A DNA stretch of 64,000 nucleotides from Candidatus Saccharimonadales bacterium (GCA_025449905.1 JANWIN010000012.1:45318-109317); one strand, 5' to 3'. Shown: positions 4,702 through 63,877, numbered from the stretch's first letter. Program-made: numbers and translations. Notes: generated from the letters alone by a model not told the origin.

Positions 4702-4722
4702 GACCTATTCTTAGGCAATTTA

Positions 4723-4752
4723 ACCGCTCGGGGACCACCTCGGGCGGTTTTT
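4723..4752 (+). terminator. intrinsic terminator
   Basis: 11-bp GC-rich stem (4723-4733 / 4738-4748) followed by TTTT. Confidence 0.75.
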
Positions 4753-4763
4753 AGTTTAAGGGG

Positions 4764-4792
4764 TTGTCAAGTAAGCATAAGTGTGATATAGT
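4764..4792 (+). promoter_or_regulatory. promoter giving a leaderless mRNA for 4799 CDS
   Basis: TTGTCA 4764-4769, 17 nt, TGaTATAGT (-10 at 4787-4792), only 6 nt to ATG 4799, no SD. Confidence 0.5.
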
Positions 4793-6735: not shown

Positions 6736-6765
6736 CTAAAATGATTCTGTGAAAAACCTCACAGC

Positions 6766-6801
6766 GAATACTCCGTGGACATCTAAGCCCACGGAGTATT
6801 C
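6766..6801 (-). terminator. intrinsic terminator hairpin downstream of secreted paralog A
   Basis: gaatactccgtgg / ccacggagtattc 13-bp stem. Confidence 0.55.
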
Positions 6802-6822
6802 GACGGCTGTAGCCTAAAAGAA

Positions 6823-13402: not shown

Positions 13403-13416
13403 TTATCCACAGAAAT

Positions 13417-13444
13417 TAAAAACTCCCCAATTGGGGAGTTTTTC
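13417..13444. terminator. bidirectional intrinsic terminator
   Basis: aaaaactcccc-aatt-ggggagttttt perfect hairpin with A/T runs both sides, downstream of RRM gene. Confidence 0.65.
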
Positions 13445-13460
13445 TTTAGCTAGTTGAAAT

Positions 13461-15977: not shown

Positions 15978-17852
15978 ATGGATAAAAAACCGTTTAGAAC
16001 CAACCCAGCCGGTAAGGCACCTAACCGCCGTGGTCTTAAAAACATTGGCTTTTTAGTAATTCTAGCTTTGATTGGCTTGATAATCTTTGCCAGCTACTCC
16101 AAGCCCAGCAATCTTAAAGAAGTAGCGCTGTCTGATGTTGTCCAGCAAGCTAACGACGGCGAAGTTAAGAAAATAACCATTAAGGGCAATGATATAGAAG
16201 TAACCAAAAAGGGCGAAGACAAACCCACCCAAAAATCGCACAAAGAAGCCGGCTCAAGTATTTACGAACAAGGCTTAAATAAAAATATCGAGGGACTGGA
16301 AGTTAACCCCCAGCAGGAATCGAGCTCCGGCTCGACCTGGGCCAACATTGGCATCTCGATTTTGCCGGTCATTATAATTAGCGCCGTTTTATTCTTTATG
16401 CTGCGTAGCGCGCAGGGACAAGGCAATCAAGCGTTGAGTTTTGGTAAGAGTCGCGCCCGTCTATATGGCAATGAAAAAGAAAAGGTCACATTTTCTAGTG
16501 TGGCTGGCAGTGATGAGGCTAAACAAGACCTGCAGGAAGTCGTCGAGTTTTTGAAGTATCCTAAAAAGTTTGAATCGGTCGGCGCCAAAATTCCTAAAGG
16601 TGTTTTAATTGTTGGCCCACCGGGCACTGGAAAGACTATGCTGGCCCGCGCCGTAGCCGGCGAAGCCAACGCGCCGTTTTTTAGCATTTCTGGTTCAGAG
16701 TTTGTTGAAATGTTTGTTGGTGTCGGCGCCAGCCGTGTCCGCGACCTGTTCGCTAAGGCTAAGAAAAATTCGCCCTGCATTATCTTTATAGATGAAATTG
16801 ATGCCGTCGGCCGCCGTCGTGGTTCGGGTATGGGGGGTGGACATGACGAACGCGAGCAAACCCTAAACCAGATTTTGGTAGAAATGGATGGTTTTGAACA
16901 AGGCCAAAATGTTATTGTCCTGGCTGCGACCAACCGCTCTGATGTACTGGATCCAGCCCTGCTTCGCCCCGGACGTTTTGACCGCAAGGTTAATATTGAT
17001 TTGCCAGACCGTAAAGACCGTGAAGCTATTTTAAAAACTCATTTTGAGAAAAAACCGCTGACTAAAGACGTAGACTTAGATGCCTTAGCCGCTAAAAGCG
17101 CCGGCTCTTCTGGTGCAGACCTAGCTAATATTGCTAACGAGTCGGCAATTGTTGCCGCTCGCAACAATCGACGCGAAATCCGCTCAACTGATGTAACTGA
17201 AGCCTTTGAAAAAGTCGCCATTGGTCCGGAGCGCAAGAGTAAAATCATGACTGATAAGGAAAAAGAACTAACTGCCTACCATGAAGCCGGTCACGCTATC
17301 GTCGGTCATATTTTGCCGGACAGCGACATGGTTCATAAAGTTACAATTATCCCCCGCGGCGGTACCGGTGGGGTAACGTGGTTCATCCCGCCGGACGATA
17401 AAAGCTACCATTCAATTATTGAGTTTAAAGACGTTTTAGCTCGCATGCTTGGTGGTCGAGTAGCCGAAGAAGTAGTCTATGGCAATGATCGTATTACCAC
17501 CGGTGGTGGCAACGACTTGCAGAAGGCCGCCGAACTAGCCCGCGATATGGTGGTTAATCAGGGTATGGGTAAAAAACTGCGCGACCAAGTTTTTCATGTC
17601 GATGAGGGTATGATGATTGAAAAGCTAGTTCACGAGCGTAACTACTCAGACGATACTGCTAAAGTTATTGATGGTGAGGTTGAGAGCTTAATTTCTGAAG
17701 CTGCCACCCGCGCCCGTCTGGTTATTAAGGCCAATCGTCAAAAATTAGAAATTCTAAAAGCTAAGCTACTGGAAAAAGAAACGGTAGAGGCCAACGAAGT
17801 CCTGGAGATCTTGAAGGGCAGCGTTATGCCCAAAACAGCCGCCTTATACTAA
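15978..17852 (+). CDS. ftsH: ATP-dependent zinc metalloprotease FtsH
   Basis: Walker [12 protein letters not shown] region, HEAGH zinc site, N-terminal TM pair. Confidence 0.95.
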
Positions 17853-19525: not shown

Positions 19526-21307
19526 ATGGACCAAAGCAAGATTCGCAACTTCTGTATTATTGCGCACATCGACCATGGCAAAAGTACGCTGGCAGACCGT
19601 TTGCTGGAATTGACCGGTACGGTCGAAAAACGGGCGATGAAAAATCAGTTACTGGATCAAATGGATTTAGAGCGCGAGCGCGGCATCACTATTAAACTTC
19701 AGCCAGTCCGCATGAGTTATAAAGACCATGAACTAAACCTTATAGATACACCGGGGCATGTCGATTTTAGTTATGAAGTTTCGCGTAGCCTTGCTGCCTG
19801 CGAGAGCGCAATACTGGTGGTTGACGCCACCCAGGGCATCCAGGCCCAAACCTTATCCAATATTTATTTGGCACTATCCGCCAATCTAAAGATAATCCCC
19901 GTACTTAATAAAATTGATTTAGCGGCTGCTGATACTCAAAAAACATCAAAAGAAATTGTTGGCTTGCTGGGCTGTGACGAGAAAGATATTTTATTAGTTT
20001 CGGCTAAAACCGGTGAAGGGGTAGAAGTTGTTCTAGATAAAATTATCAGCGAAACTCCTCCGCCAAATGGTGAAGCCGATAAGCCGCTTCGGGCGCTGGT
20101 GTTTGACAGTTATTACGATGATTACCGCGGCGTAATTTTGTATGTACGGGTTATGGATGGGCAAATTGCTAAAAACAGTCAAATTAAAATGATGGCCACC
20201 ACCGCCGAAGGCATTGCCCTCGAAGTTGGTTCCCTAAAACCGGATATGAATAGTGCTGCCAGCCTGCAAAGTGGAGAAATTGGCTACATTGTCACTAGCC
20301 TAAAAAGTGCTCATGAAGCCCGCGTTGGTGACACAGTCTCACTTGTATCTAAACCGGCTCAAGAACCGCTGGCCGGCTACAAAGAAATTAGGCCATTTGT
20401 CTACGCCGGCTTTTTCCCAATCAGCAATGAGGACTATCAAGACCTAAAAGAGGCTGTTGAAAAATTAAGTCTAAGCGATTCGTCCCTGCAGTTTACGACT
20501 GAAAATTCACAAGTTCTTGGTTTCGGGCTAAGGATTGGTTTCTTGGGTCTTTTGCATCTAGACATTGTCCGCGAGCGTTTGGAGCGCGAGTATAACCTTG
20601 AGCTAATTATCACTAATCCGTCGACCGATTACGAGGTTATACTAACCAGTGGTGAAAATTTGGACTTAAAAAATGCCGCTGAACTACCAGATGTCTCTAA
20701 TGTCATGGAAATAAAAGAACCTTGGATAAAAGGTGAAATAGTCGTGCCCAAAAACTATGTTGGAGCGATTTTGCAACTAGTGGCTGGTAAAAGGGGGCAT
20801 CAAAAGAATGTATCGTATATGGAAGGTGACTTAGCGGTTGTTGACTTTGAAGCGCCACTGGCTAATTTACTAACAGATTTTTATGATCAGCTAAAAAGCA
20901 TTACCAGCGGTTACGGCTCATTCAATTATGAACTGGCCGATTATCGGGCAGAAGACCTAGTCCGCTTAGACTTTTACGTCGCTGGCGAGATAATTAACAT
21001 GTTAAGTATTATTGTGCATCGCAGCGAAGCCGAAACGTTAGGCCGTCGAACCGTTGAAAAACTCAAAGACGTAATTCCCCGCCAGCAGTTTAAAGTTAGC
21101 CTGCAAGCAGCCATTGGCGGCAAGTTTATAGCCCGTGAAGACATCAGTGCCTACCGAAAGGATGTAACGACTGGTTTATACGGTGGCGATGTTACACGCA
21201 AGAAAAAACAACTAGCCAAGCAAAAGAAGGGCAAAGAACGACTCAAAAAATTTGGCAAGGTTGATATTCCACCCGAGGCCTTCACTGTTATGCTCAGACG
21301 CGATTAG
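19526..21307 (+). CDS. lepA: elongation factor 4 (LepA)
   Basis: G1 AHIDHGKST, DTPGHVDF, NKID; LepA-specific C-terminal domain. Confidence 0.95.
   Translation: MDQSKIRNFCIIAHIDHGKSTLADRLLELTGTVEKRAMKNQLLDQMDLERERGITIKLQPVRMSYKDHELNLIDTPGHVDFSYEVSRSLAACESAILVVDATQGIQAQTLSNIYLALSANLKIIPVLNKIDLAAADTQKTSKEIVGLLGCDEKDILLVSAKTGEGVEVVLDKIISETPPPNGEADKPLRALVFDSYYDDYRGVILYVRVMDGQIAKNSQIKMMATTAEGIALEVGSLKPDMNSAASLQSGEIGYIVTSLKSAHEARVGDTVSLVSKPAQEPLAGYKEIRPFVYAGFFPISNEDYQDLKEAVEKLSLSDSSLQFTTENSQVLGFGLRIGFLGLLHLDIVRERLEREYNLELIITNPSTDYEVILTSGENLDLKNAAELPDVSNVMEIKEPWIKGEIVVPKNYVGAILQLVAGKRGHQKNVSYMEGDLAVVDFEAPLANLLTDFYDQLKSITSGYGSFNYELADYRAEDLVRLDFYVAGEIINMLSIIVHRSEAETLGRRTVEKLKDVIPRQQFKVSLQAAIGGKFIAREDISAYRKDVTTGLYGGDVTRKKKQLAKQKKGKERLKKFGKVDIPPEAFTVMLRRD
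20994..21005. repeat. TTAACATGTTAA palindrome copy 3 (inside lepA, read as INMLS)
   Basis: Perfect 12-mer with right flank GTATT. Confidence 0.9.
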
Positions 21308-21764
21308 CAGCTTTTAAAGCTTTTGATACATAAAACTGTATAGCCGGTAAAACTTTCCACTTTGGATCTTTAACTTCTGTGAGATTAAACCAGCGGATTT
21401 CGTTGTGTTCATTTGCAGCCAGTTTGACTTTATTCGTCTTAGCAACTGCAAAATAATGAAGGGCAATATGTTGATGACGGTCATTATAATTATGAATATC
21501 CATATAGTTCGGGACAAACAAAGGCTTATACTTAAAGGCTTTTGTACTTTCCAGTTTTGGTTTTACACCGATGATTTTAACCTTTAGACCGCATTCTTCC
21601 ATAACCTCGCGATGTAAAGCTTCTTCCGGGTCTTCATCAAGCTCAATATGTCCACCAATGGGTAGCCAAGTTTTCAGTTTTTTGTGATGAATTAGCAGAA
21701 CCTTATCTTGATAAACAATAAAAGCATTGACTACGAAATCAATCTTTTCATGAATATGGGCCAT
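21294..21764 (-). CDS. NUDIX hydrolase
   Basis: Nudix box GGHIELDEDPEEALHREVMEECGL; 14-nt convergent overlap with lepA. Confidence 0.85.
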   Translation of the reverse strand: MAHIHEKIDFVVNAFIVYQDKVLLIHHKKLKTWLPIGGHIELDEDPEEALHREVMEECGLKVKIIGVKPKLESTKAFKYKPLFVPNYMDIHNYNDRHQHIALHYFAVAKTNKVKLAANEHNEIRWFNLTEVKDPKWKVLPAIQFYVSKALKAANRV

Positions 21765-22396
21765 CAGCTATTCCTATTCGAAAATTCTAGCAGCTTGTTA
21801 ATAATTTCTTTCGTTACTGCGTCTATGGCTAATTCGCCGTTAATTTCAACTAGCAAGCCCTTCTGGCGATAAAATTCAATGACCGGTAAAGTTTTGTCCT
21901 TGTATTCTCTCAAGCGAGTTTTTAAACCTTCAGAAGTATCATCAACTCTTTTTCCTCTATCCTTCTGTTCTCTGGCAATTTTCCAGCGTTTCCAAACCTC
22001 TTCTTCACCCAACCTAAGTAGGATAGCCGCTTTTAACGGATGTCCAGACTCTGTTGCGGCTTCCATGATACTCTGTTCTTCTCCTTGCCATCTGCCAACT
22101 GCGCTTAATATCAGAGGCTTTCCGTCAAATGCGGCTCTACTAAAATATGGTAGAACCATTTCCAAATAATCATTTTGTGGTGCCAGTATACCGGTATCAA
22201 TAACTTTTTTGACGTCGTCACGCTTGCTGTTGCGGAGAATATCACCGCCGCCAACTAGCTTACCGCCAAAAATCTTCGCCAATAATTGCCCTTGAGTATC
22301 CTTGCCAGAAAATTGGATACCTAATAAATTAATGGAACCTGTCCCTAGCCATTTTTTTATTATTTCTACCTGTTTTTCCAGACCACCAATATCCAT
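21764..22396 (-). CDS. adenylate kinase-like nucleoside monophosphate kinase (atypical P-loop)
   Basis: LLGIQFSGKDTQ..GGGDILR aligns to AK GxPGxGKGTQ..STGDxLR; ATG 22396 sits 6 nt after a TATAAT (22408-22403) so the TTG start at 22435 in the track is unlikely. Confidence 0.6.
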   Translation of the reverse strand: MDIGGLEKQVEIIKKWLGTGSINLLGIQFSGKDTQGQLLAKIFGGKLVGGGDILRNSKRDDVKKVIDTGILAPQNDYLEMVLPYFSRAAFDGKPLILSAVGRWQGEEQSIMEAATESGHPLKAAILLRLGEEEVWKRWKIAREQKDRGKRVDDTSEGLKTRLREYKDKTLPVIEFYRQKGLLVEINGELAIDAVTKEIINKLLEFSNRNS

Positions 22397-22433
22397 AACT
22401 GAATTATATCTAGTAAGAAAGCTAGCGCAAACC

Positions 22434-22479
22434 AAAATTGTCCAGAATCGTGACGATCGTCACAAAATTGTACAATTTT
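22434..22479. repeat. 46-bp three-dyad palindromic element, copy L1
   Basis: AAAATTGTccag-N4-GTGACGATCGTCAC-N4-AAAATTGTACAATTTT; dyad centres 15 bp apart; between divergent promoters. Confidence 0.7.
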
Positions 22480-22484
22480 GGGTG

Positions 22485-22511
22485 TTGGCACTCTTGACTG
22501 GCGAGTGCTAA
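22485..22511 (+). promoter_or_regulatory. CIRCE operator 1 (HrcA binding site)
   Basis: TTGGCACTC-N9-GAGTGCTAA vs consensus TTAGCACTC-N9-GAGTGCTAA; overlaps TTGACT -35. Confidence 0.85.
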
Positions 22512-22520
22512 TTTGTTAAG

Positions 22521-22547
22521 CTAGCACTACATTAATGCGAGTGCCAT
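22521..22547 (+). promoter_or_regulatory. CIRCE operator 2 (degenerate)
   Basis: CTAGCACTA-N9-GAGTGCCAT, overlaps hrcA start codon. Confidence 0.55.
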
Positions 22548-23253
22548 GTTAACAGATAGACAGAGTAAGATATTAGCCGCTATTATCGAGCAATATGCCG
22601 AAGTTGCAGCTCCAGTAGGTTCCAACCTGCTAGCTAAGGCTTTTGAGGTTAGTTCAGCGACTATTCGCGCTGACATGGCTCATCTGGAGGACGAAGGCTA
22701 TATCAAACAGCCACACACCAGCGCAGGCCGTATCCCAACAGATAAAGGCTACCGTTTGTACGTTAATAACTTGAGCGAAGACAAACCGCAAATTACCGAA
22801 GGACGCGGTGAAAAAGCCTTAATGGCCCGCGTGGAAAGCGGCGGCCAGCCGGAGCGAACTATTCGCAACGCTGTTGATACGCTAGTGGAACTAACACATA
22901 ACCTGGGTCTAGCCACTATTGGCAACCAGTTGTACATGAGTGGTTTGTCAAATTTATTTGGCCAGCCGGAGTTTATGAACAAGGGCCAGGTCCAGGAGGT
23001 TGCGAGGCTTCTGGACAACCTTGAACCGTGGCTGAGGGAAGCTTCACCTAATGAACCGCTAAGTGTTTACATCGGCCAAGAAAACCCAGTTGGTGGAGCG
23101 GCCGGTTGTTCACTGATTATTAGCCGTTTCCGTAGCCCATATAGTGACCGCAGTTACATTGGTACCCTTGGCCCAACCCGCCAGAGCTACCGCGACGTTA
23201 TGCAGTTGGTTAGCCGCGCCGGCCGAACGTTGGAGGAAGTGCTTTATGCCTAA
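22546..23253 (+). CDS. hrcA: heat-inducible transcription repressor HrcA (short form, 235 aa)
   Basis: N-terminal wHTH MLTDRQSKILAAIIEQY..PVGS..L; position upstream of grpE-dnaK and CIRCE. Confidence 0.85.
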   Translation: MLTDRQSKILAAIIEQYAEVAAPVGSNLLAKAFEVSSATIRADMAHLEDEGYIKQPHTSAGRIPTDKGYRLYVNNLSEDKPQITEGRGEKALMARVESGGQPERTIRNAVDTLVELTHNLGLATIGNQLYMSGLSNLFGQPEFMNKGQVQEVARLLDNLEPWLREASPNEPLSVYIGQENPVGGAAGCSLIISRFRSPYSDRSYIGTLGPTRQSYRDVMQLVSRAGRTLEEVLYA

Positions 23254-31486: not shown

Positions 31487-31605
31487 TTCTGGCGCCGATA
31501 GCGACTTTTCGACTCCGCTTCTCAGTCAAAGTAGCATTTCTACATTTCCTTCGAATGCTCGCCGAGAAAGTCGCTTCGACACTCAGCTGAGAGCGTCTAG
31601 CAAAT

Positions 31606-31702
31606 AGGGAAAAGAGCAACCCGAGAGAAAATCGCACTTTTTGCCCGGCGCGATGAGAAAAACCGTAGGTTTGTCTTATAAGGCGAAGCGTTAGCGTAGC
31701 CG
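31606..31702 (+). repeat. ~97-bp intergenic repeat, copy A
   Basis: About 90% identical to 46371-46468 (shared ...aaatcgcactttttgccc.gcg.gatgagaaaaaccgtaggtttgtct.ataaggc...gcgtagccgc). Confidence 0.8.
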
Positions 31703-31723
31703 CGCTTGTGGTATTATTTTGCT

Positions 31724-42707: not shown

Positions 42708-43160
42708 TTAGTTTAAATTACTCTTAGCAAAGTAAGTACCGCCACTTTCAAGAGTTGCGGTTAGGACATATTTAGCACAGTCTTTTGCTGCATTATCACA
42801 GGCTGTATCATCATCAGCCTTTACATCATAGGCGTAGGCATCAGCCTGCACAGTAGCTACCAAAGTTTGGGCACTACCCCTAGGATCTCTCAAGGCTTCG
42901 GCGTCCAAACCTTTAACATTTGTAGATCGCCAAGTGGCATCATTCATGTTAGCAAGCGTAGGGTACTTACCATGTTCAGCATAATAAGCTTCCATTTGAC
43001 CGTGCATGGCCCTAATATCTGTTTGCCTCTCTGTATCACGACCCTTTTTTTGGATTCCGGTAAAAGTGGTTATTACCAATGCTGCCAATATGCCGATAAC
43101 GACGATGACAATTAATAATTCGACGATAGTAAAACCTTGTTGATTTTGTTTTTGACTCAT
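42708..43160 (-). CDS. pilA: type IV major pilin
   Basis: QQGFTIVELLIVIVVIGILAALV; C-terminal Cys pair CDNAAKDC. Confidence 0.85.
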   Translation of the reverse strand: MSQKQNQQGFTIVELLIVIVVIGILAALVITTFTGIQKKGRDTERQTDIRAMHGQMEAYYAEHGKYPTLANMNDATWRSTNVKGLDAEALRDPRGSAQTLVATVQADAYAYDVKADDDTACDNAAKDCAKYVLTATLESGGTYFAKSNLN

Positions 43161-46300: not shown

Positions 46301-46370
46301 TGTTTATATTCGCCACTCTTTTCTTGGCTTTATTATATAAGAAAAAGCATAAACAAGATAACTTGATAAG

Positions 46371-46468
46371 AGGGAAAAGAGTAGCCCGAGCAAAAATCGC
46401 ACTTTTTGCCCAGCGTGATGAGAAAAACCGTAGGTTTGTCTCATAAGGCATAGCGAAGCGTAGCCGCC
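46371..46468 (+). repeat. ~97-bp intergenic repeat, copy B (upstream of recA promoter)
   Basis: About 90% identical to 31606-31702, same orientation. Confidence 0.8.
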
Positions 46469-46483
46469 AAAAAGCATAAGCAA

Positions 46484-47779: not shown

Positions 47780-48377
47780 AATTACCTCTATAAAACAGCA
47801 GGTCAAGGATTCAAAACGCTATTCGATTTTTATTGACGGGAAATATAGTTTTTCGCTCAGCGAGCTGGCGCTAATAAACAGCGAGCTAAAACTTGGGCAG
47901 GAAATTTCTAAGAGTGAGCTAAAAAACTTCAAGCAAGAATCAGACCTAGATAGAGCCTACAACCGAGTTTTAAATCTGTTAGCACGCCGATCACGCAGCC
48001 AATGGGAAGTTGAAGATTACTTAAAACGCAAAAAATACGATAGTGAACAGATTGAAAAAATACTTAACAAGTTAAGGGACAGGTATTTAATAAATGATTT
48101 ATCATTTGCCAATGCTTGGATAGAAAATCGTCGTCTGCTTAAAAACATGAGCAAACGCAAACTAATGCAGGAACTGCGAGCTAAACGGATTAACGACGAA
48201 ATCATCAATGAAGTCATGGGTCTGGACGAAACCGGCGAGCTGGAAGTCTTAAAAGAACTGGTTGCCAAAAAGCGCAGCCAAAGTCGTTATAAGGATGACT
48301 TAAAACTCATGCAATATTTATCTCGCCAAGGTTTCAACTACAACGATATTAAGACTGTCCTACAAAAAGAAGACTAA
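47772..48377 (+). CDS. recX: recombination regulator RecX
   Basis: MAKITSIKQQ..R..I.IDG start typical of RecX; three-helix repeat region; GTG 47745 is an alternative start. Confidence 0.8.
   Translation: MAKITSIKQQVKDSKRYSIFIDGKYSFSLSELALINSELKLGQEISKSELKNFKQESDLDRAYNRVLNLLARRSRSQWEVEDYLKRKKYDSEQIEKILNKLRDRYLINDLSFANAWIENRRLLKNMSKRKLMQELRAKRINDEIINEVMGLDETGELEVLKELVAKKRSQSRYKDDLKLMQYLSRQGFNYNDIKTVLQKED
48064..48075. repeat. one-mismatch variant TTAACAAGTTAA (inside recX)
   Basis: 20-mer aaaatacttaacaagttaag identical to variant in glyA (61567-61586). Confidence 0.75.
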
Positions 48378-48383
48378 TCAAGC

Positions 48384-48430
48384 AAAATTGTACAACTTTG
48401 TGACGATCGTCAATATCTTGTACAATTTTT
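48384..48430. repeat. 46-bp three-dyad palindromic element, copy L2
   Basis: AAAATTGTACAA-N4-GTGACGATCGTCA-N5-TTGTACAATTTTT; same 15+15 bp dyad spacing as 22434-22479. Confidence 0.7.
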
Positions 48431-48432
48431 CG

Positions 48433-48984
48433 CTAGGTAGCGGGACTAAGCGGGACGGGAGCTGTTTGGGTTTCACCATCTTCAACGCCTTGAAGCGGGT
48501 CTTGAACGACAATCTTTTTGTTAGTAATTTCAGTAATTTGATCACGGTCTATGGCCAAACCGCCACCGCTAAAACTTTTTACAAGTGATTGAGCAATATA
48601 GATTTTGCCAATATACATGGTTTCAACTTCAACAGCATAGTCGCTGACCTTACCCAGGCGTTTCTTGCTAACAGTTACAACGGGCTTACCAATTAATGAA
48701 AAATTGAGTTTAATTATATCTTTGAGACGCACGAGTTCATCTGGCTGGCTTAACACTTCATGATCATTAACCGCAATACCTTGCGGCAAAATGTCACGGA
48801 TATCTTGACTGAGAAGAATCAGTTTTTGTTTGCGATTAAAGCTATCTTGGCAGAAAAAGCCCTCCACTTTTAAATTGTTGGGGTTGATTATAGCCTCAAG
48901 AGTCTGGCCTACCTGATTACCGGCCCGAAGGCTCATAACCGGCTGATTTAAAAAAGTCTGGCTCAAGTGAAACATCTGTTTCAA
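48433..48984 (-). CDS. PRC-barrel-like domain protein (tentative)
   Basis: Two repeats of a small beta-barrel-like segment (V.SLRAG..VG....II.P..L.V.GF; LIGKPVVT...K.LGKVSDY.V). Confidence 0.5.
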   Translation of the reverse strand: MKQMFHLSQTFLNQPVMSLRAGNQVGQTLEAIINPNNLKVEGFFCQDSFNRKQKLILLSQDIRDILPQGIAVNDHEVLSQPDELVRLKDIIKLNFSLIGKPVVTVSKKRLGKVSDYAVEVETMYIGKIYIAQSLVKSFSGGGLAIDRDQITEITNKKIVVQDPLQGVEDGETQTAPVPLSPAT

Positions 48985-53141: not shown

Positions 53142-53702
53142 ATGGCGAAAACTCAAAAACTACCGCCGATAACTAGTGACACAAAAATTCTTAGTTTTGA
53201 CATTGAAACCAATGACCTACACGGTAAGGCTTTTGCAATTGGGGCAGTGCTGGTTGATGCCAACGGCAAAGTAGTTGACGAATTCAGTGGTCGCATTGAA
53301 ATTACGGGTCCTGTTCACGAATGGGTTAAAGTAAAAGTTCTGTCGGTCATCACTGACATGCCTGTTAATTACAAAAGCTACAAAGAACTCCAAGAAGCTT
53401 TTTGGCAGTGGTATTTAAAGGCCGAAGAAAAAAGCGATTATGTGGTGGTTAACAATGGCTACCCAATAGAATATAAATATTTACTGGAGTGTCAGCAGAT
53501 TGATTTAGAAGAGCGCTATTGGCAGCACCCTTTTCCAATCTTAGATTTGGCGAGCTTACTAATTATGATAGGCGAAAATAAAAACGAATTTGTCAAAGAG
53601 TTCATGAAAGAATCTAGTTTTAAAACTCATCATCCCGTGCATGACGCGATGGTTACGGCTCTAGCAGCCTTTAAAGCTTTTCGCCAAGCCGGCCAATTAT
53701 AA
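53142..53702 (+). CDS. DEDDh-type 3'-5' exonuclease (tentative)
   Basis: ILSFDIETN (ExoI), HHPVHDAMVTA (ExoIII H-x4-D). Confidence 0.6.
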   Translation: MAKTQKLPPITSDTKILSFDIETNDLHGKAFAIGAVLVDANGKVVDEFSGRIEITGPVHEWVKVKVLSVITDMPVNYKSYKELQEAFWQWYLKAEEKSDYVVVNNGYPIEYKYLLECQQIDLEERYWQHPFPILDLASLLIMIGENKNEFVKEFMKESSFKTHHPVHDAMVTALAAFKAFRQAGQL

Positions 53703-58025: not shown

Positions 58026-58787
58026 ATGGGAAAAACTAATCTTAAATTGGAAAACGCGCCTATTGTGGGAGTAACTGCAACTCATTACACAGAACCAAAA
58101 GAAGTTCGTTTTCAGCTGGCTAAAAAAACTGTGGAGGCATGGAGAAAAGCTGGCCTACCGCTTATTGTTGCTGATACATCACCTAAGTCTTGGGTCGTGG
58201 ATGAATTGGCAGATCGAGGGGCTATTATATGCCCCAAACCCAGCCCGGGCTTAGCAACCCAGTATATAGACGGTGTAAATTTTGCGCTCAAGAACGGCGC
58301 AAAGAAAATTCTAACCGCCGAGCCAGAAAAAATTGATCTAGCCAAATTTGCCCTTGACCCCATTAGCCATAGTCTAGAGCATAGCGATATTGTTGTGGTG
58401 GGCAGGACTCTTAAATCTATGCGCTCATTACCGACTTACCAAGCAAAAATTGAAGAAGCCACAGCTTTGGTATTTGAAAAGTTTGGTTATCCGCCAGACG
58501 TTATGTCCGGCATCCGTGCTTATTCAAAAGAAGGCGCTAAAGTGTTCGTTAAATATGATGCTGATAAATATGGCAACAACTGGGTTCGCTTGCATGAACC
58601 TTTAGTCCGAGCTCGCAAAAAGGGACTGAAGATAACTGGGGTCTTGATAGATCTTATATATCCGCAAGAGGTTCGCGACCAAGAACAAGATAATCCCGCC
58701 TTTGACATGAAACGGCTTGACCAAAGCCTAATACATTTACAGTGGCTTCTAAAACAAGAGGGCTACAAGATAAGCTTCCCAGTTTAA
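58026..58787 (+). CDS. hypothetical protein (Rossmann-like alpha/beta pattern)
   Basis: 253 aa ORF; 4-nt convergent overlap with murA fusion gene. Confidence 0.5.
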   Translation: MGKTNLKLENAPIVGVTATHYTEPKEVRFQLAKKTVEAWRKAGLPLIVADTSPKSWVVDELADRGAIICPKPSPGLATQYIDGVNFALKNGAKKILTAEPEKIDLAKFALDPISHSLEHSDIVVVGRTLKSMRSLPTYQAKIEEATALVFEKFGYPPDVMSGIRAYSKEGAKVFVKYDADKYGNNWVRLHEPLVRARKKGLKITGVLIDLIYPQEVRDQEQDNPAFDMKRLDQSLIHLQWLLKQEGYKISFPV

Positions 58788-60304
58788 ATTTCGTTTAAGA
58801 CCTGGATATTAGCACCAAGGCTGTTGAGGCGTTCGGCTAAATCTTCATAGCCACGATTGATTGAGTAAACATTTCTAAGAGTCGACATGCCGTCAGCGGC
58901 AAGCATGCCAATTAGTAAAATCACGGCTGGCCGCAGGGCCGGTGGGCAGGCGACATCGGCGGCGCTGAACTTTGTTGGCCCATCTATGTAAGCACGGTGT
59001 GGATCGGCCAGAGTGACATTGGCGCCTAGCTTACGCATCTCGGTATAATAAAGTGCCCGCTCGTCATAGACCCAGTCATGTATTAAAGTGCGGCCTTTAG
59101 CTACGGCGGCAATTGGAATAAAGTAGGGCAGGTTATCAATATTAAGTCCCGGGTAAGGGCGGGCATAAATCTTTTCATCCAAAGCTTCTAGCTTGCCATG
59201 ATGTTTATAAATTGTGACGTTGGCCAGTTCGGTGTGGCCATTATGAGCCTTATATTGCGAAGAAACTTTAAACCTTAGACCCATTTTTTTAAGCTTTAGT
59301 AGTTCCAGTTCCAAAAACTCAATTGGTGCTCGCTTAATTGTGATTTCCGAGTCTGTAGTTATAGCCGCCGCAATGAAAGTCATGGCTTCAATCGGGTCTT
59401 CGCTTGGGTAATATGTAACATTCTTTTTTATCTCACGCACGCCTTGAACTCGCAGCGTGCTGGTACCAATGCCCTCAATTTTGACCCCCAGCTTTCTCAA
59501 AAAGAAACACATATCCTGCACCATGTAATTAGCGCTAGCCATTTTTATAACTGTTTCCTGCTCAAAACGCGCAGCGGCCATCAAAACATTTTCAGTGGTA
59601 GTATCACCAGATTCATAAAGTACTATTTGCGGCGTATGTTTTCTATTGACTGTGACGTTGTAGTGACCGCTTTTAGCCAGGATGTTGACGCCTAGTTCCT
59701 CCAAGGCAAATAAATGTGGCTGAACAGTTCTTGTACCCAAACGACAGCCGCCGGCGTAGGGAATCTTAAATTCATTGAATATATGCATCAGCGGCCCAAG
59801 CATCATGAGCACGCTGCGGGTTTTGCGAGCTGCGGATTTATTCATCTTGGCCATATTAGGTTTAGCTGGTGGTTTAATTTCCAAATCGTTACCGGCCAGC
59901 CATTTAACCTGCACACCGATACTCTCTAAAACTTCAATAATACGATTAACTTCCTCAATTCGCGGCATGGCTTTGAGCCGAGTCGTGCCTTTGTTAAGTA
60001 GAGCAGCAAAGAGTAGGGCTACTGCTGCATTTTTAGAAACCTTGGTTTCAATCGAGCCTTTTAGCTCATGGCCGCCCTCCACTCGCAGATTCATTGAGCT
60101 ACCGGAAATGCTGATAATTGGCTTTTGCAGAACGTCGCTAATGCGTCCCAAGGTATCTAAGCTAAGGTTTTGTTTACCATGTTCAATCCGGTTGACGGCC
60201 GATTGGCTGGTGCCAAGCTGGCGGGCAAAAGCGGCTTGGGTTAGTCCGCGGTCTTGCCTTAATTGATAAATAAGATGGCCAATTTTTTCGTTTGTGGAGG
60301 GCAT
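58784..60304 (-). CDS. murA: XRE-type HTH domain fused to UDP-N-acetylglucosamine 1-carboxyvinyltransferase (MurA)
   Basis: N-terminal LRQDRGLTQAAFARQLGTSQSAVNRIEHGKQN, then MurA body with catalytic-loop Cys (YAGGCRLGTRTVQPH). Confidence 0.85.
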   Translation of the reverse strand: MPSTNEKIGHLIYQLRQDRGLTQAAFARQLGTSQSAVNRIEHGKQNLSLDTLGRISDVLQKPIISISGSSMNLRVEGGHELKGSIETKVSKNAAVALLFAALLNKGTTRLKAMPRIEEVNRIIEVLESIGVQVKWLAGNDLEIKPPAKPNMAKMNKSAARKTRSVLMMLGPLMHIFNEFKIPYAGGCRLGTRTVQPHLFALEELGVNILAKSGHYNVTVNRKHTPQIVLYESGDTTTENVLMAAARFEQETVIKMASANYMVQDMCFFLRKLGVKIEGIGTSTLRVQGVREIKKNVTYYPSEDPIEAMTFIAAAITTDSEITIKRAPIEFLELELLKLKKMGLRFKVSSQYKAHNGHTELANVTIYKHHGKLEALDEKIYARPYPGLNIDNLPYFIPIAAVAKGRTLIHDWVYDERALYYTEMRKLGANVTLADPHRAYIDGPTKFSAADVACPPALRPAVILLIGMLAADGMSTLRNVYSINRGYEDLAERLNSLGANIQVLNEI

Positions 60305-60371: not shown

Positions 60372-61631
60372 ATGAAAGATAAAGAAATTGAGAAGTTAAT
60401 TAAGGCCGAAGTTGTGCGTCAAAGCGAGGGCTTGGAAATGATCCCCAGCGAAAATCATACTTCGACGGATGTGCTGAAAGCTTTGGGTTGTCGGCTGACT
60501 GACAAATACTCGGAAGGCTATCCGGGGATGCGTTACTACGGCGGCTGCGAAGTAGTCGATGCTGTCGAAAATCTAGCCCGCGATCGCGCTAAAAAACTAT
60601 TTGGCACGACCCATGCTAATGTTCAGCCATATTCCGGCTCGCCGGCTAACCAAGCTGTTTATTTTGCGCTGCTTGATCCCGGTGACACCGTTATGGGCAT
60701 GGACCTGTACTTTGGCGGTCATATGACCCATGGGCTGAAAGTTAATTTCTCTGGCAAATGGTTTAATTCAGTTTTGTACCAAACTGGCAAGGACGGTTAC
60801 CTAGATTACGAAGCTATGGCCAAGATGGCAGTCAAAGAAAAGCCAAAAATGATTATTGCCGGCGCAACGGTATACCCGCGAATTTTTGATTGGGAAAAAC
60901 TAAAAGCTATAGCCGACAGCGTCGGTGCTTGGTTTTTAGCCGACGTATCGCACATTGCTGGATTGATTGTCGCTGGTGAGCATCCTTCGCCCGTCGGTCT
61001 GGCTGACGTTGTCATGACGACAACACATAAAACCCTACGCGGGCCGCGCGGGGCAATCTTACTCTGTAACGGCAAAGAGTCAACACCGCTCAAAAAAGTT
61101 GAACGCCAGCGCGAAAATCTGCCGACGCTAATTGATCGGGCCATCATTCCGGGTTTGCAGGGTGGTCCTCACAATCATCAGACGGCCGCTATTGCCGTGG
61201 CCTTGAACGAAGCCGCCCAACCAGCTTTTAAAACTTATGGGCAACAAGTCGTTAAAAACGCTAAAACTCTAGCTAATGAATTAACTAACCGCGGCTATAA
61301 TTTAGTAACCGGCGGCACAGACAATCACTTAATGTTAATAGACCTTAGCAGTAAGGGCGTACTCGGCGCCGAAGCGGAGAAAGCCCTAGGCAAGGCGGGC
61401 ATCACTGTCAATAAAAACACCGTGCCATTTGACCCAAGACCACCATTTAGCCCGTCAGGGATAAGGTTAGGGACGCCCGCACTAACAACTCGGGGCATGA
61501 AAGAAGCCGAAATGGTGCAAGTAGCCGGCTGGATAGACCAAGCTATCACCCACTCCGCTGACGATAAAATACTTAACAAGTTAAGCATAGAGATTAAGGC
61601 CTTTTGTAAGCAGTATCCCCTACCTGCTTAA
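60372..61631 (+). CDS. glyA: serine hydroxymethyltransferase
   Basis: SENHTS, YGGCE, PLP site TTTHKTLRGPRG. Confidence 0.97.
   Translation: MKDKEIEKLIKAEVVRQSEGLEMIPSENHTSTDVLKALGCRLTDKYSEGYPGMRYYGGCEVVDAVENLARDRAKKLFGTTHANVQPYSGSPANQAVYFALLDPGDTVMGMDLYFGGHMTHGLKVNFSGKWFNSVLYQTGKDGYLDYEAMAKMAVKEKPKMIIAGATVYPRIFDWEKLKAIADSVGAWFLADVSHIAGLIVAGEHPSPVGLADVVMTTTHKTLRGPRGAILLCNGKESTPLKKVERQRENLPTLIDRAIIPGLQGGPHNHQTAAIAVALNEAAQPAFKTYGQQVVKNAKTLANELTNRGYNLVTGGTDNHLMLIDLSSKGVLGAEAEKALGKAGITVNKNTVPFDPRPPFSPSGIRLGTPALTTRGMKEAEMVQVAGWIDQAITHSADDKILNKLSIEIKAFCKQYPLPA
61573..61584. repeat. one-mismatch variant TTAACAAGTTAA (inside glyA)
   Basis: Same 20-mer as in recX. Confidence 0.75.
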
Positions 61632-63754: not shown

Positions 63755-63831
63755 GCCCGCGTAGCTCAGCGGATTAGAGCGCTTGTCTTCGGAACAAGAG
63801 GCCGTAGGTTCGAATCCTTCCGCGGGTACCA
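63755..63831 (+). tRNA. tRNA-Arg (UCG)
   Basis: Acceptor gcccgcg/cgcgggt, anticodon stem cttgt/acaag, loop cuUCGga, CCA; TATAAT at 63741-63746. Confidence 0.9.
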
Positions 63832-63875
63832 GCAGTGGCATGATGACTTTTCATCGTCCTGCCGCTGCTTTTATT
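63832..63875 (+). terminator. intrinsic terminator after tRNA-Arg
   Basis: agcagtggca...tgccgctgct long stem with inner gatga-cttt-tcatc, followed by TTTTATTT. Confidence 0.6.
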
Positions 63876-63877
63876 TG

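Follow-up and report, generated by a model that had tools for sequence, protein, structure and literature searches.

The window, by which we mean the whole 64,000-nt stretch of Candidatus Saccharimonadales (Saccharibacteria, TM7) DNA that was analyzed, contains two copies of a 46-bp palindromic element, here called L1 and L2 (Table 1). L1 lies between an adenylate-kinase-like gene on the minus strand (ADK domain), which is followed by a NUDIX gene, and the hrcA-grpE-dnaK-dnaJ operon on the plus strand. The original prediction placed L1 immediately upstream of the -35 boxes of both genes. This is correct for the kinase-like gene, where 3 nt separate the element from the predicted -35 box TTGCGC, but the hrcA side needs correcting: L1 ends 5 nt before the first CIRCE operator, and the hrcA -35 box TTGACT (22494-22499) sits within the spacer of that operator.

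L2 covers 46 nt of a 55-nt interval that separates two convergent stop codons, the TAA of recX (48375-48377) and the stop of a PRC-barrel gene (48433-48435). recX ends a recA-orf-recX operon on the plus strand, and the PRC-barrel gene is on the minus strand. The proposed check for clustering of copies at promoters of stress or DNA-repair genes came out negative in the window, where only L1 is at a promoter. A Pfam scan of the window ORFs showed housekeeping genes (type IV pilus and competence, ruvABC, mur). As DNA-binding proteins, the window encodes HrcA, a YebC-like protein, and an HTH-AroA fusion; no candidate cognate regulator is encoded beside L1 or L2. In the HTH-AroA protein (58784-60304, minus strand), an Xre-type HTH_3 domain precedes an EPSP synthase (AroA), an unusual fusion of an enzyme with a DNA-binding domain.

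Table 1. Coordinates of the two palindrome copies, their parts, and the neighboring control sequences in the window
Feature	Position	Strand	Description
Kinase-like gene, predicted promoter and start	22394-22430	-	TTGCGC 22430-22425, 16-nt spacer, TATAAT 22408-22403, ATG 22396-22394; outside the element
L1	22434-22479	.	AAAATTGTCCAGAATCGTGACGATCGTCACAAAATTGTACAATTTT; 46-bp palindrome copy, 18/23 symmetric pairs; between the divergent kinase-like (-) and hrcA (+) promoters
L1 symmetry extension	22432-22481		CC...GG
L1 left outer arm	22438-22445	.	TTGTCCAG, degenerate; pairs with the right arm save for one mismatch and one G.U
L1 inner stem and center	22450-22463	.	GTGACGATCGTCAC, perfect 14-bp palindrome; GATC loop on folding
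L1 right outer arm	22468-22475	.	TTGTACAA; includes a TACAAT hexamer similar to local -10 boxes
CIRCE operators and hrcA promoter	22485-22547	+	CIRCE 22485-22511 and 22521-22547, TTGACT-17-TAAGCT embedded; conserved hrcA module, outside the element
L2	48384-48429	.	AAAATTGTACAACTTTGTGACGATCGTCAATATCTTGTACAATTTT; 19/23 symmetric pairs; in the 55-nt recX/PRC-barrel stop-to-stop gap
L2 left outer arm	48388-48395	.	TTGTACAA
L2 inner stem and center	48400-48413	.	GTGACGATCGTCAA, perfect palindrome but for one mismatch
L2 right outer arm	48418-48425	.	TTGTACAA, then TTTTT

Reading the window bore out the L1 sequence as first quoted. The dyad centers are 15 + 15 bp apart, as claimed, both in L1 (22441/42, 22456/57, and 22471/72) and in L2 (48391/92, 48406/07, and 48421/22). 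The second copy indeed has the identical geometry, but its end had been given as 48430, one base too far. Likewise, the perfect 14-bp palindrome described for the center is present in L1 but imperfect in L2, and the claim of flanking dyads holds for the outer arms except the left arm of L1, which is not itself palindromic. The equal dyad spacing arises because the whole 46-mer is a single palindrome, and the outer dyads, which form the two arms of the outer stem, resemble independent palindromes because the arm holds the self-complementary core GTAC.

To quantify the symmetry, we scored 23 symmetric pairs at every center of the 64-kb window. L1 and L2 are its two most symmetric 46-mers; the window mean is 5.8 (S.D. 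2.1), and a score of 17 was reached by just one other center. When up to two mismatches were allowed, the central palindrome had two matches in the window compared with 0.03 expected, a number reached in none of 100 shuffles. The two copies are oppositely oriented, with 80% identity in direct and 87% in inverted alignment, and their similarity breaks off sharply where the palindrome ends. All four half-elements share AAAATTGT-CA...TGACGA, with 4-nt spacers that differ. The repeated palindrome is real and non-random, and L1 and L2 are best explained as one near-palindrome of 46-50 bp, present twice, rather than as sets of three separate binding sites.

No third copy was detected in the window, either by a consensus scan that allowed 14 mismatches in 38 positions or with an nhmmer profile, and single dyads on their own do not exceed chance there. 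A short repeat, TAGCAGC(T/C)TTTAAAGCTTTT with a small palindrome AGCTTTAAAGCT, occurs at 21305-21324, 53662-53681, and 61219-61238; two of these copies fall on or close to the 3′ end of an ORF (the stop of lepA and the end of ORF 53142-53702).

For comparison with the L1 locus, we used 80 metagenomic Saccharibacteria loci (727 kb; HrcA 75-82% identical) and the two closest relatives with available DNA (HrcA 86% identical), 82 hrcA loci in total; HrcA homologues of about 80% identity, labeled Saccharibacteria or Saccharimonadales, number in the hundreds. The module of CIRCE operators and promoter is kept in nearly all of the 82 loci, and L1 is upstream of hrcA in none of them. Seven related loci have the same arrangement of a minus-strand kinase gene and a plus-strand hrcA, and all seven are without L1. 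Neither the three-dyad element nor any of its sub-motifs was found in the 727 kb of related hrcA neighborhoods. L1 is therefore a lineage-specific gain, outside the hrcA control region. The double CIRCE with a -35 TTGAC in its first spacer is itself an architecture common to most of the Saccharibacteria loci fetched (L003-L084), among which a leaderless or near-leaderless hrcA start is also frequent.

A separate structured motif of ~90 nt is composed of GGGAAAAGAGCAGCC, a variable hairpin, GGCGCGAUGAG, a second hairpin, and CUCAUAAGGCGAAGC. In the window it occurs at 31596-31705 and 46361-46469, upstream of ORF 31706 and recA, with partial similarity at 16205-16241. In other Saccharibacteria, it is located in hrcA or dnaK leaders or just past lepA (L018 2977-3076, L020 11867-11955, L029 6313-6233 on the minus strand, L056 9898-9980, L066 9852-9999, L004 2317-2394, and L093 10604-10686). 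Six of the 12 pairs of hairpin 2 show compensatory double changes (RNAalifold), hairpin 1 covaries by eye, and Rfam 15 yielded nothing for the motif at E ≤ 1. Stress-gene leaders may thus carry an RNA, cis-regulatory or mobile, that has escaped annotation. In L093 (10580-10760; RecX 65% identical), the motif directly follows a complete recX, and after it the final ~21 recX codons are repeated (LMQYLARQGFSYDLIKQVLND, then the stop), which looks as if an insertion had brought a replacement recX 3′ end.

The junction occupied by L2 gave a different picture. After confirming the orthology of RecX and the PRC-barrel protein by tblastn, we found palindromes or homologues of the element at the same junction in four other Saccharibacteria lineages. 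The first (L086, L087, and L089; RecX 75-76% identical) has a diverged homologue of the whole of L2, TAAAATGTACACTAAAGTTGACGACCGTCATAAAAGTAGGACAATTTA (nhmmer E = 0.04), which is identical in three samples and retains TGTACA, TGACGNNCGTCA, and GGACAAT; this was the only lineage that the nhmmer profile recovered from the relatives, again at the recX junction. The other three have palindromes with different arms: AAAACTCACGA/TCGTGAGTTT, also written AAAATTGTATGTCAAAACTCACGA/TCGTGAGTTT, in L088 (RecX 78%); a perfect 38-bp palindrome, ATTCCACAAAAATACGCGA/TCGCGTATTTTTGTGGAAT, in L090-92 (RecX 72%); and TTTCTTGCCCGG/CCGGGCAGAAAA in L094 (RecX 69%). In a further relative, L085 (RecX 78%), the recX and PRC-barrel genes abut, and the element is absent. 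With no intergenic gap to hold it there, the element is dispensable.

Although the arms differ in L088, L090, and L094, they stay complementary. Tabulating the stem pairs by script, anchored at the palindrome center, revealed compensatory double changes at stem positions 4-7 from the center: A-T to G-C, G-C to C-G, and T-A to A-T. A CGATCG center is common to four elements (L1, L2, L088, and L090), and in 858 kb of Saccharibacteria DNA, palindromes centered on CGATCG occur only at recX junctions and in L1. The hexamer TTGTAC directly after the recX stop is kept in L2, L086, L088, and L094; it is unpaired in L088 and L094. We considered and rejected a target-site duplication, in which TTGTACAA would be an 8-bp repeat on either side of a 22-bp core: in relatives, the left TTGTAC has no counterpart on the right.

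These comparisons bear directly on the proposal that the element is an operator for an unknown multimeric regulator. On this view, one or two DNA-binding proteins would sit as dimers on the three dyads and co-regulate the kinase-like and hrcA promoters as well as something at recX. The position of L1, exactly between two divergent promoters, is what an operator would lead one to expect, and the half-elements keep their shared sequence while the spacers vary. Self-complementary outer arms go beyond what a hairpin needs, and L086 retains the sequence motifs without a stable fold. The composite center also fits TGTGA-N6-TCACA, the CRP-type consensus, and TGTACA palindromes are known as YefM antitoxin operators. 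Against this, L2 is situated between two stop codons, the element is missing from all 82 related hrcA loci while CIRCE is present in nearly all, and the dyads, which do not exceed chance as isolated sites in the window, are not found at all in the 727 kb of related loci. Neither copy has a transcription-factor gene or a toxin-antitoxin pair beside it. The arms are replaced symmetrically in L088, L090, and L094; arms that change while palindromy stays, at three recX junctions, are not the behavior of a sequence-specific operator. We consider the operator array very unlikely. Among known sites, none of the NrdR box, the LexA boxes, Rex, CRP/FNR, OhrR, parS, and dif is known to fit both the sequence and the context of the element; a literature search for a LexA motif of Saccharibacteria found none.

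We then evaluated whether the element could act as RNA. The predicted hairpin has an outer stem AAAAUUGUACAA/UUGUACAAUUUU, a 4 × 4 internal loop, an inner stem (G)UGAC/GUCA(C), and a GAUC loop. L1 folds with -19.3 (plus strand) and -21.0 (minus strand) kcal/mol (z -3.6 and -4.6), and L2 with -17.9 and -17.8 kcal/mol (z -4.8 and -3.9), although neither makes the top 25 of local folds by stability in the 64-kb window. Of the junction palindromes in relatives, that of L090 folds with -25.2 (z -7.8), that of L088 with -12.2 (z -3.9), and that of L094 with -18.8 and -14.2 (z about -2.8). Compensatory changes accompany the fold in L088, L090-92, and L094. The exception is the L086 version, the nearest relative of L2 in sequence: its folds of -6.2 and -7.4 kcal/mol are matched by shuffled sequences (z -0.3 and -0.6). 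A search of Rfam 15 gave no meaningful match over 22380-22560 at E ≤ 10 and none at the gathering score in the window.

On both strands, L2 forms a stable hairpin with AAAA upstream and UUUU(U) downstream, the arrangement of an intrinsic terminator. A-run and T-run flanks are shared by L1, L2, L088, and L090; in L094, a U-run precedes the hairpin and an A-run follows it, the reverse of a terminator. A location at 3′ ends between convergent units is true of L2 and untrue of L1. As the base of the L2 stem is AU-rich, its strength as a terminator is uncertain. As a precedent, the same genome contains a perfectly palindromic, bidirectional-terminator-like hairpin with a palindromic loop at 13408-13453 (AAAAACTCCCCAATTGGGGAGTTTTT) and canonical terminators with a GC-rich stem and a T-run at 4709-4764 and 63821-63876.

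Two further sequences of the window deserve mention next to these hairpins. A very stable hairpin with a 15-bp stem (6757-6812; -34 kcal/mol) is found between two minus-strand genes. In addition, the palindrome CTTAACATGTTAAG, often within A(C/T)TTAACATGTTAAGTATT, occurs nine times with up to two mismatches compared with 0.42 expected in the window (14-mers at 689, 5873, 20993, 35597, 48063, 54570, 61572, and 61640, and a weaker match at 42966). Several of these copies are within the 3′ parts of genes (lepA, recX, and ruvA), three are at convergent junctions, and just one exact copy is present among 92 related loci. We rejected CTTAACATGTTAAG as a terminator; its stem is too short and AU-rich.

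Replaced yet complementary arms, the stop-to-stop position, and the A-tract and T-tract flanks together fit a transcribed hairpin that acts as a terminator or 3′-end protector. Transcription of the element from either strand would give a long, AU-rich, interrupted hairpin with an A-tract on its 5′ side and a U-tract on its 3′ side. L2 would be the older copy, serving as a bidirectional intrinsic terminator and/or as a 3′-end-protecting hairpin for the recA-orf-recX and PRC-barrel transcripts. Because L2 fills so much of the gap between the convergent stops, it is the intrinsic terminator of the recX and PRC-barrel units if they have one. L1 is best explained as a copy, given its sharp similarity boundaries and opposite orientation; this second copy would have landed in the only dispensable gap between the upstream edges of the divergent promoters. 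Its dispersal would be REP-like. In its present place, L1 may have no effect, or it may shield hrcA from transcription that reads through from lepA across the antisense kinase and NUDIX genes. That the hairpin is a bidirectional terminator or 3′-end stabilizer at recX, and L1 a lineage-specific, REP-like dispersed copy of it, is the reading we favor, with about even confidence. Within it, transcription through the element, the terminator or stabilizer activity, the direction of copying from L2 to L1, and the copying mechanism are all inferred.

Several observations fit this reading poorly. L1 is between divergent promoters, where no regular transcript would have to be ended, and strong intrinsic terminators typically lack an AU-rich stem beside the U-tract. 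CGATCG is kept, although a terminator loop needs neither conservation nor palindromy, and so is TTGTAC after recX, even where it is left unpaired. The motifs that L086 keeps without a fold hint at a constraint on sequence rather than on structure, and palindromy could be upheld by template-switch correction instead of selection. In all, only two copies have been seen, both within a 64-kb window. These misfits leave room for a constraint at the DNA level (a protein contacting the center, or template-switch growth seeded by CGATCG), for a promoter-like role, and for a neutral selfish palindrome.

The last of these would require no function. A CGATCG seed would nucleate hairpins during replication, template switching would extend the arms, and copies would survive in gaps where they are tolerated. 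Such an origin would account for symmetry that is perfect through the center in L090, L088, and L1, for a center that is kept while the arms differ, and for copies that exactly fill otherwise empty gaps; it also agrees with a relative (L085) that does without the element and with the lack of L1 in all relatives examined. However, a palindrome has persisted at one junction over lineages whose RecX proteins are 69-78% identical, which suggests retention by selection. No transposase or RAYT gene was found among the Pfam-scanned ORFs of the window, the copies number just two, and CGATCG is not enriched: our own estimate from base composition predicts about 158 sites in 858 kb, and we counted 160. 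On the same count, we rejected a HIP1-like, genome-wide enrichment of CGATCG. We regard a selfish or neutral palindrome as unlikely.

A promoter-like role would rest on the hexamers in the element. The outer arms would provide the -10 box TACAAT and the center a -35-like TTGTGA or TCGTGA 17 bp away, so that two back-to-back promoters would fire outward; L1 would then add promoters for hrcA and the kinase-like gene, and L2 would make antisense RNAs. A promoter scan did flag TTGTGA-17-TACAAT in L2, and L1 offers TCGTGA-17-TACAAT toward hrcA and TTGTGA-17-GACAAT toward the kinase-like gene. In relatives, the -10 box of hrcA commonly has this look as well, an A-rich stretch followed by GTACAAT (e.g. 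AAAATTGTACACT and CAATTGTACAAT), and promoter spacing would explain the 15-bp geometry. Nevertheless, the match is just 9 of 12 positions, at a frequency expected by chance in the region (10 found versus 12.8 expected), and both outputs of L2 would be antisense to coding genes. hrcA and the kinase-like gene have better-placed promoters of their own, that of hrcA being conserved in relatives, and the hexamers are not kept in L088, L090, or L094. We accordingly assign back-to-back promoters very little probability.

A DNA-level site could also serve a recombinase, a partition or nucleoid protein, or a restriction-modification system, for example as the ends of an invertible 26-kb segment or as a parS- or dif-like sequence. 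The inverted copies do flank the 22.4-48.4-kb segment, and the palindromic centers CGATCG and GGCC resemble restriction-modification target sites. But the arm sequence is not conserved, and the element is not known to resemble the parS or dif consensus. Inversion of the 26-kb segment is refuted by gene order, as lepA(+)...hrcA(+), kinase(-)/hrcA(+), and recX(+)/PRC(-)/LTD(+) are in the same order in relatives that lack the element or have a variant of it. We judge a site of this kind to be exceedingly improbable.

For the favored reading, a terminator or 3′-end hairpin with a dispersed copy, REPs are the natural reference. REPs have been described mainly in Proteobacteria, and the literature consulted here mentioned none from Saccharibacteria. 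The original suggestion of a REP-like element comes closer than that of an operator and is partly supported: the element is an extragenic palindrome with at least two dispersed copies and sharp boundaries, one of the copies between convergent 3′ ends; the terminal GTAG/CGTC tag, however, is absent. The Pfam scan, which covered nearly every window ORF of 120 aa or more, showed no transposase/RAYT domain (IS200/IS605-like Y1). A search for the exact composite TTGTACAA-N5-TGACGATCGTCA in one genome for each of 185,579 species (GTDB) found one homologous locus in two Gemmatimonadales MAGs, which is about the one match expected by chance by our own estimate. The composite motif had no match in IMG/VR, and the phage and plasmid collections gave no significant match. 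The Gemmatimonadales sequence (L001 5626-5662 and L002 6880-6920) is an AT-rich ATTGTACAA-N5-TGACGATCGTCAAGAAA, conserved between two GC-rich MAGs and located ~110 nt upstream of a gene for a secreted protein. Half of the element is matched by it; the match count is at chance level, but the conservation at this locus is notable.

If further copies were to be found genome-wide, the element would represent a REP-like family outside the phyla in which REPs are well described. A bolder version, which we hold to be decidedly unlikely, is an undescribed Saccharibacteria (CPR) family of small mobile or self-propagating palindromes, seeded by CGATCG and lacking a REP tag and RAYT, whose -10-mimicking arms would rewire or insulate promoters, here that of the hrcA operon. 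If our main reading is right, its value is chiefly one of annotation: it would mark the terminator or 3′-end hairpin of the recA-recX operon and of the PRC-barrel gene, and it warns against labeling L1 a heat-shock or SOS operator. It would also be of modest evolutionary interest, as a hairpin kept by compensatory change or template-switch correction across Saccharibacteria lineages and because CPR genomes as compact and poor in repeats as this one rarely show such a hairpin duplicated at another locus.

Finally, we compared the element with known systems. The CIRCE/HrcA operator, an inverted repeat that controls hrcA-grpE-dnaK, adjoins L1, but its consensus, TTAGCACTC-N9-GAGTGCTAA, has no match in L1, which shows neither sequence similarity to it nor co-conservation with it. 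The YefM-YoeB operator shares paired palindromic cores (TTGTACAA/TGTACA) with the element. Its TGTACA boxes are 12 bp apart center-to-center, within 80 bp upstream of yefM (PMC1802561). The cores of L1 and L2, in contrast, are 30 bp apart, have no adjacent toxin-antitoxin genes, and in one copy are outside a promoter; neither the 12-bp spacing nor the position upstream of yefM fits, and we rejected a YefM-type operator.

The likeness to REP/REPIN sequences is closer. REPs are imperfect palindromes of 20-40 bp that carry GTAG or CGTC as an unpaired tag at the end; they can terminate transcription and stabilize mRNA, and they favor convergent or unidirectional 3′ ends. Our element is likewise a short, extragenic, imperfect palindrome, dispersed in both orientations with sharp boundaries, and L2 is likewise at 3′ ends between convergent genes, with L1 between divergent genes. 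Unlike a REP, it is 46 bp long, ends in AAAA and TTTT, and has CGTC only inside the central stem. REPs are numerous in a genome; in the 64 kb of the window, the element has two copies.

Compared with textbook intrinsic terminators, the stem base of L1 and L2 is AU-rich, and the stem is broken by the 4 × 4 internal loop. The CGATCG loop or center is conserved and palindromic, L1 is in a promoter region, and L086 keeps the sequence and not the fold, all of which set the element apart from terminators. With bidirectional intrinsic terminators, L2 nevertheless shares a palindromic hairpin that has an A-tract on one side and a T-tract on the other and lies flush between convergent stops, and at the orthologous site in three relatives it is the structure rather than the arm sequence that has been kept.
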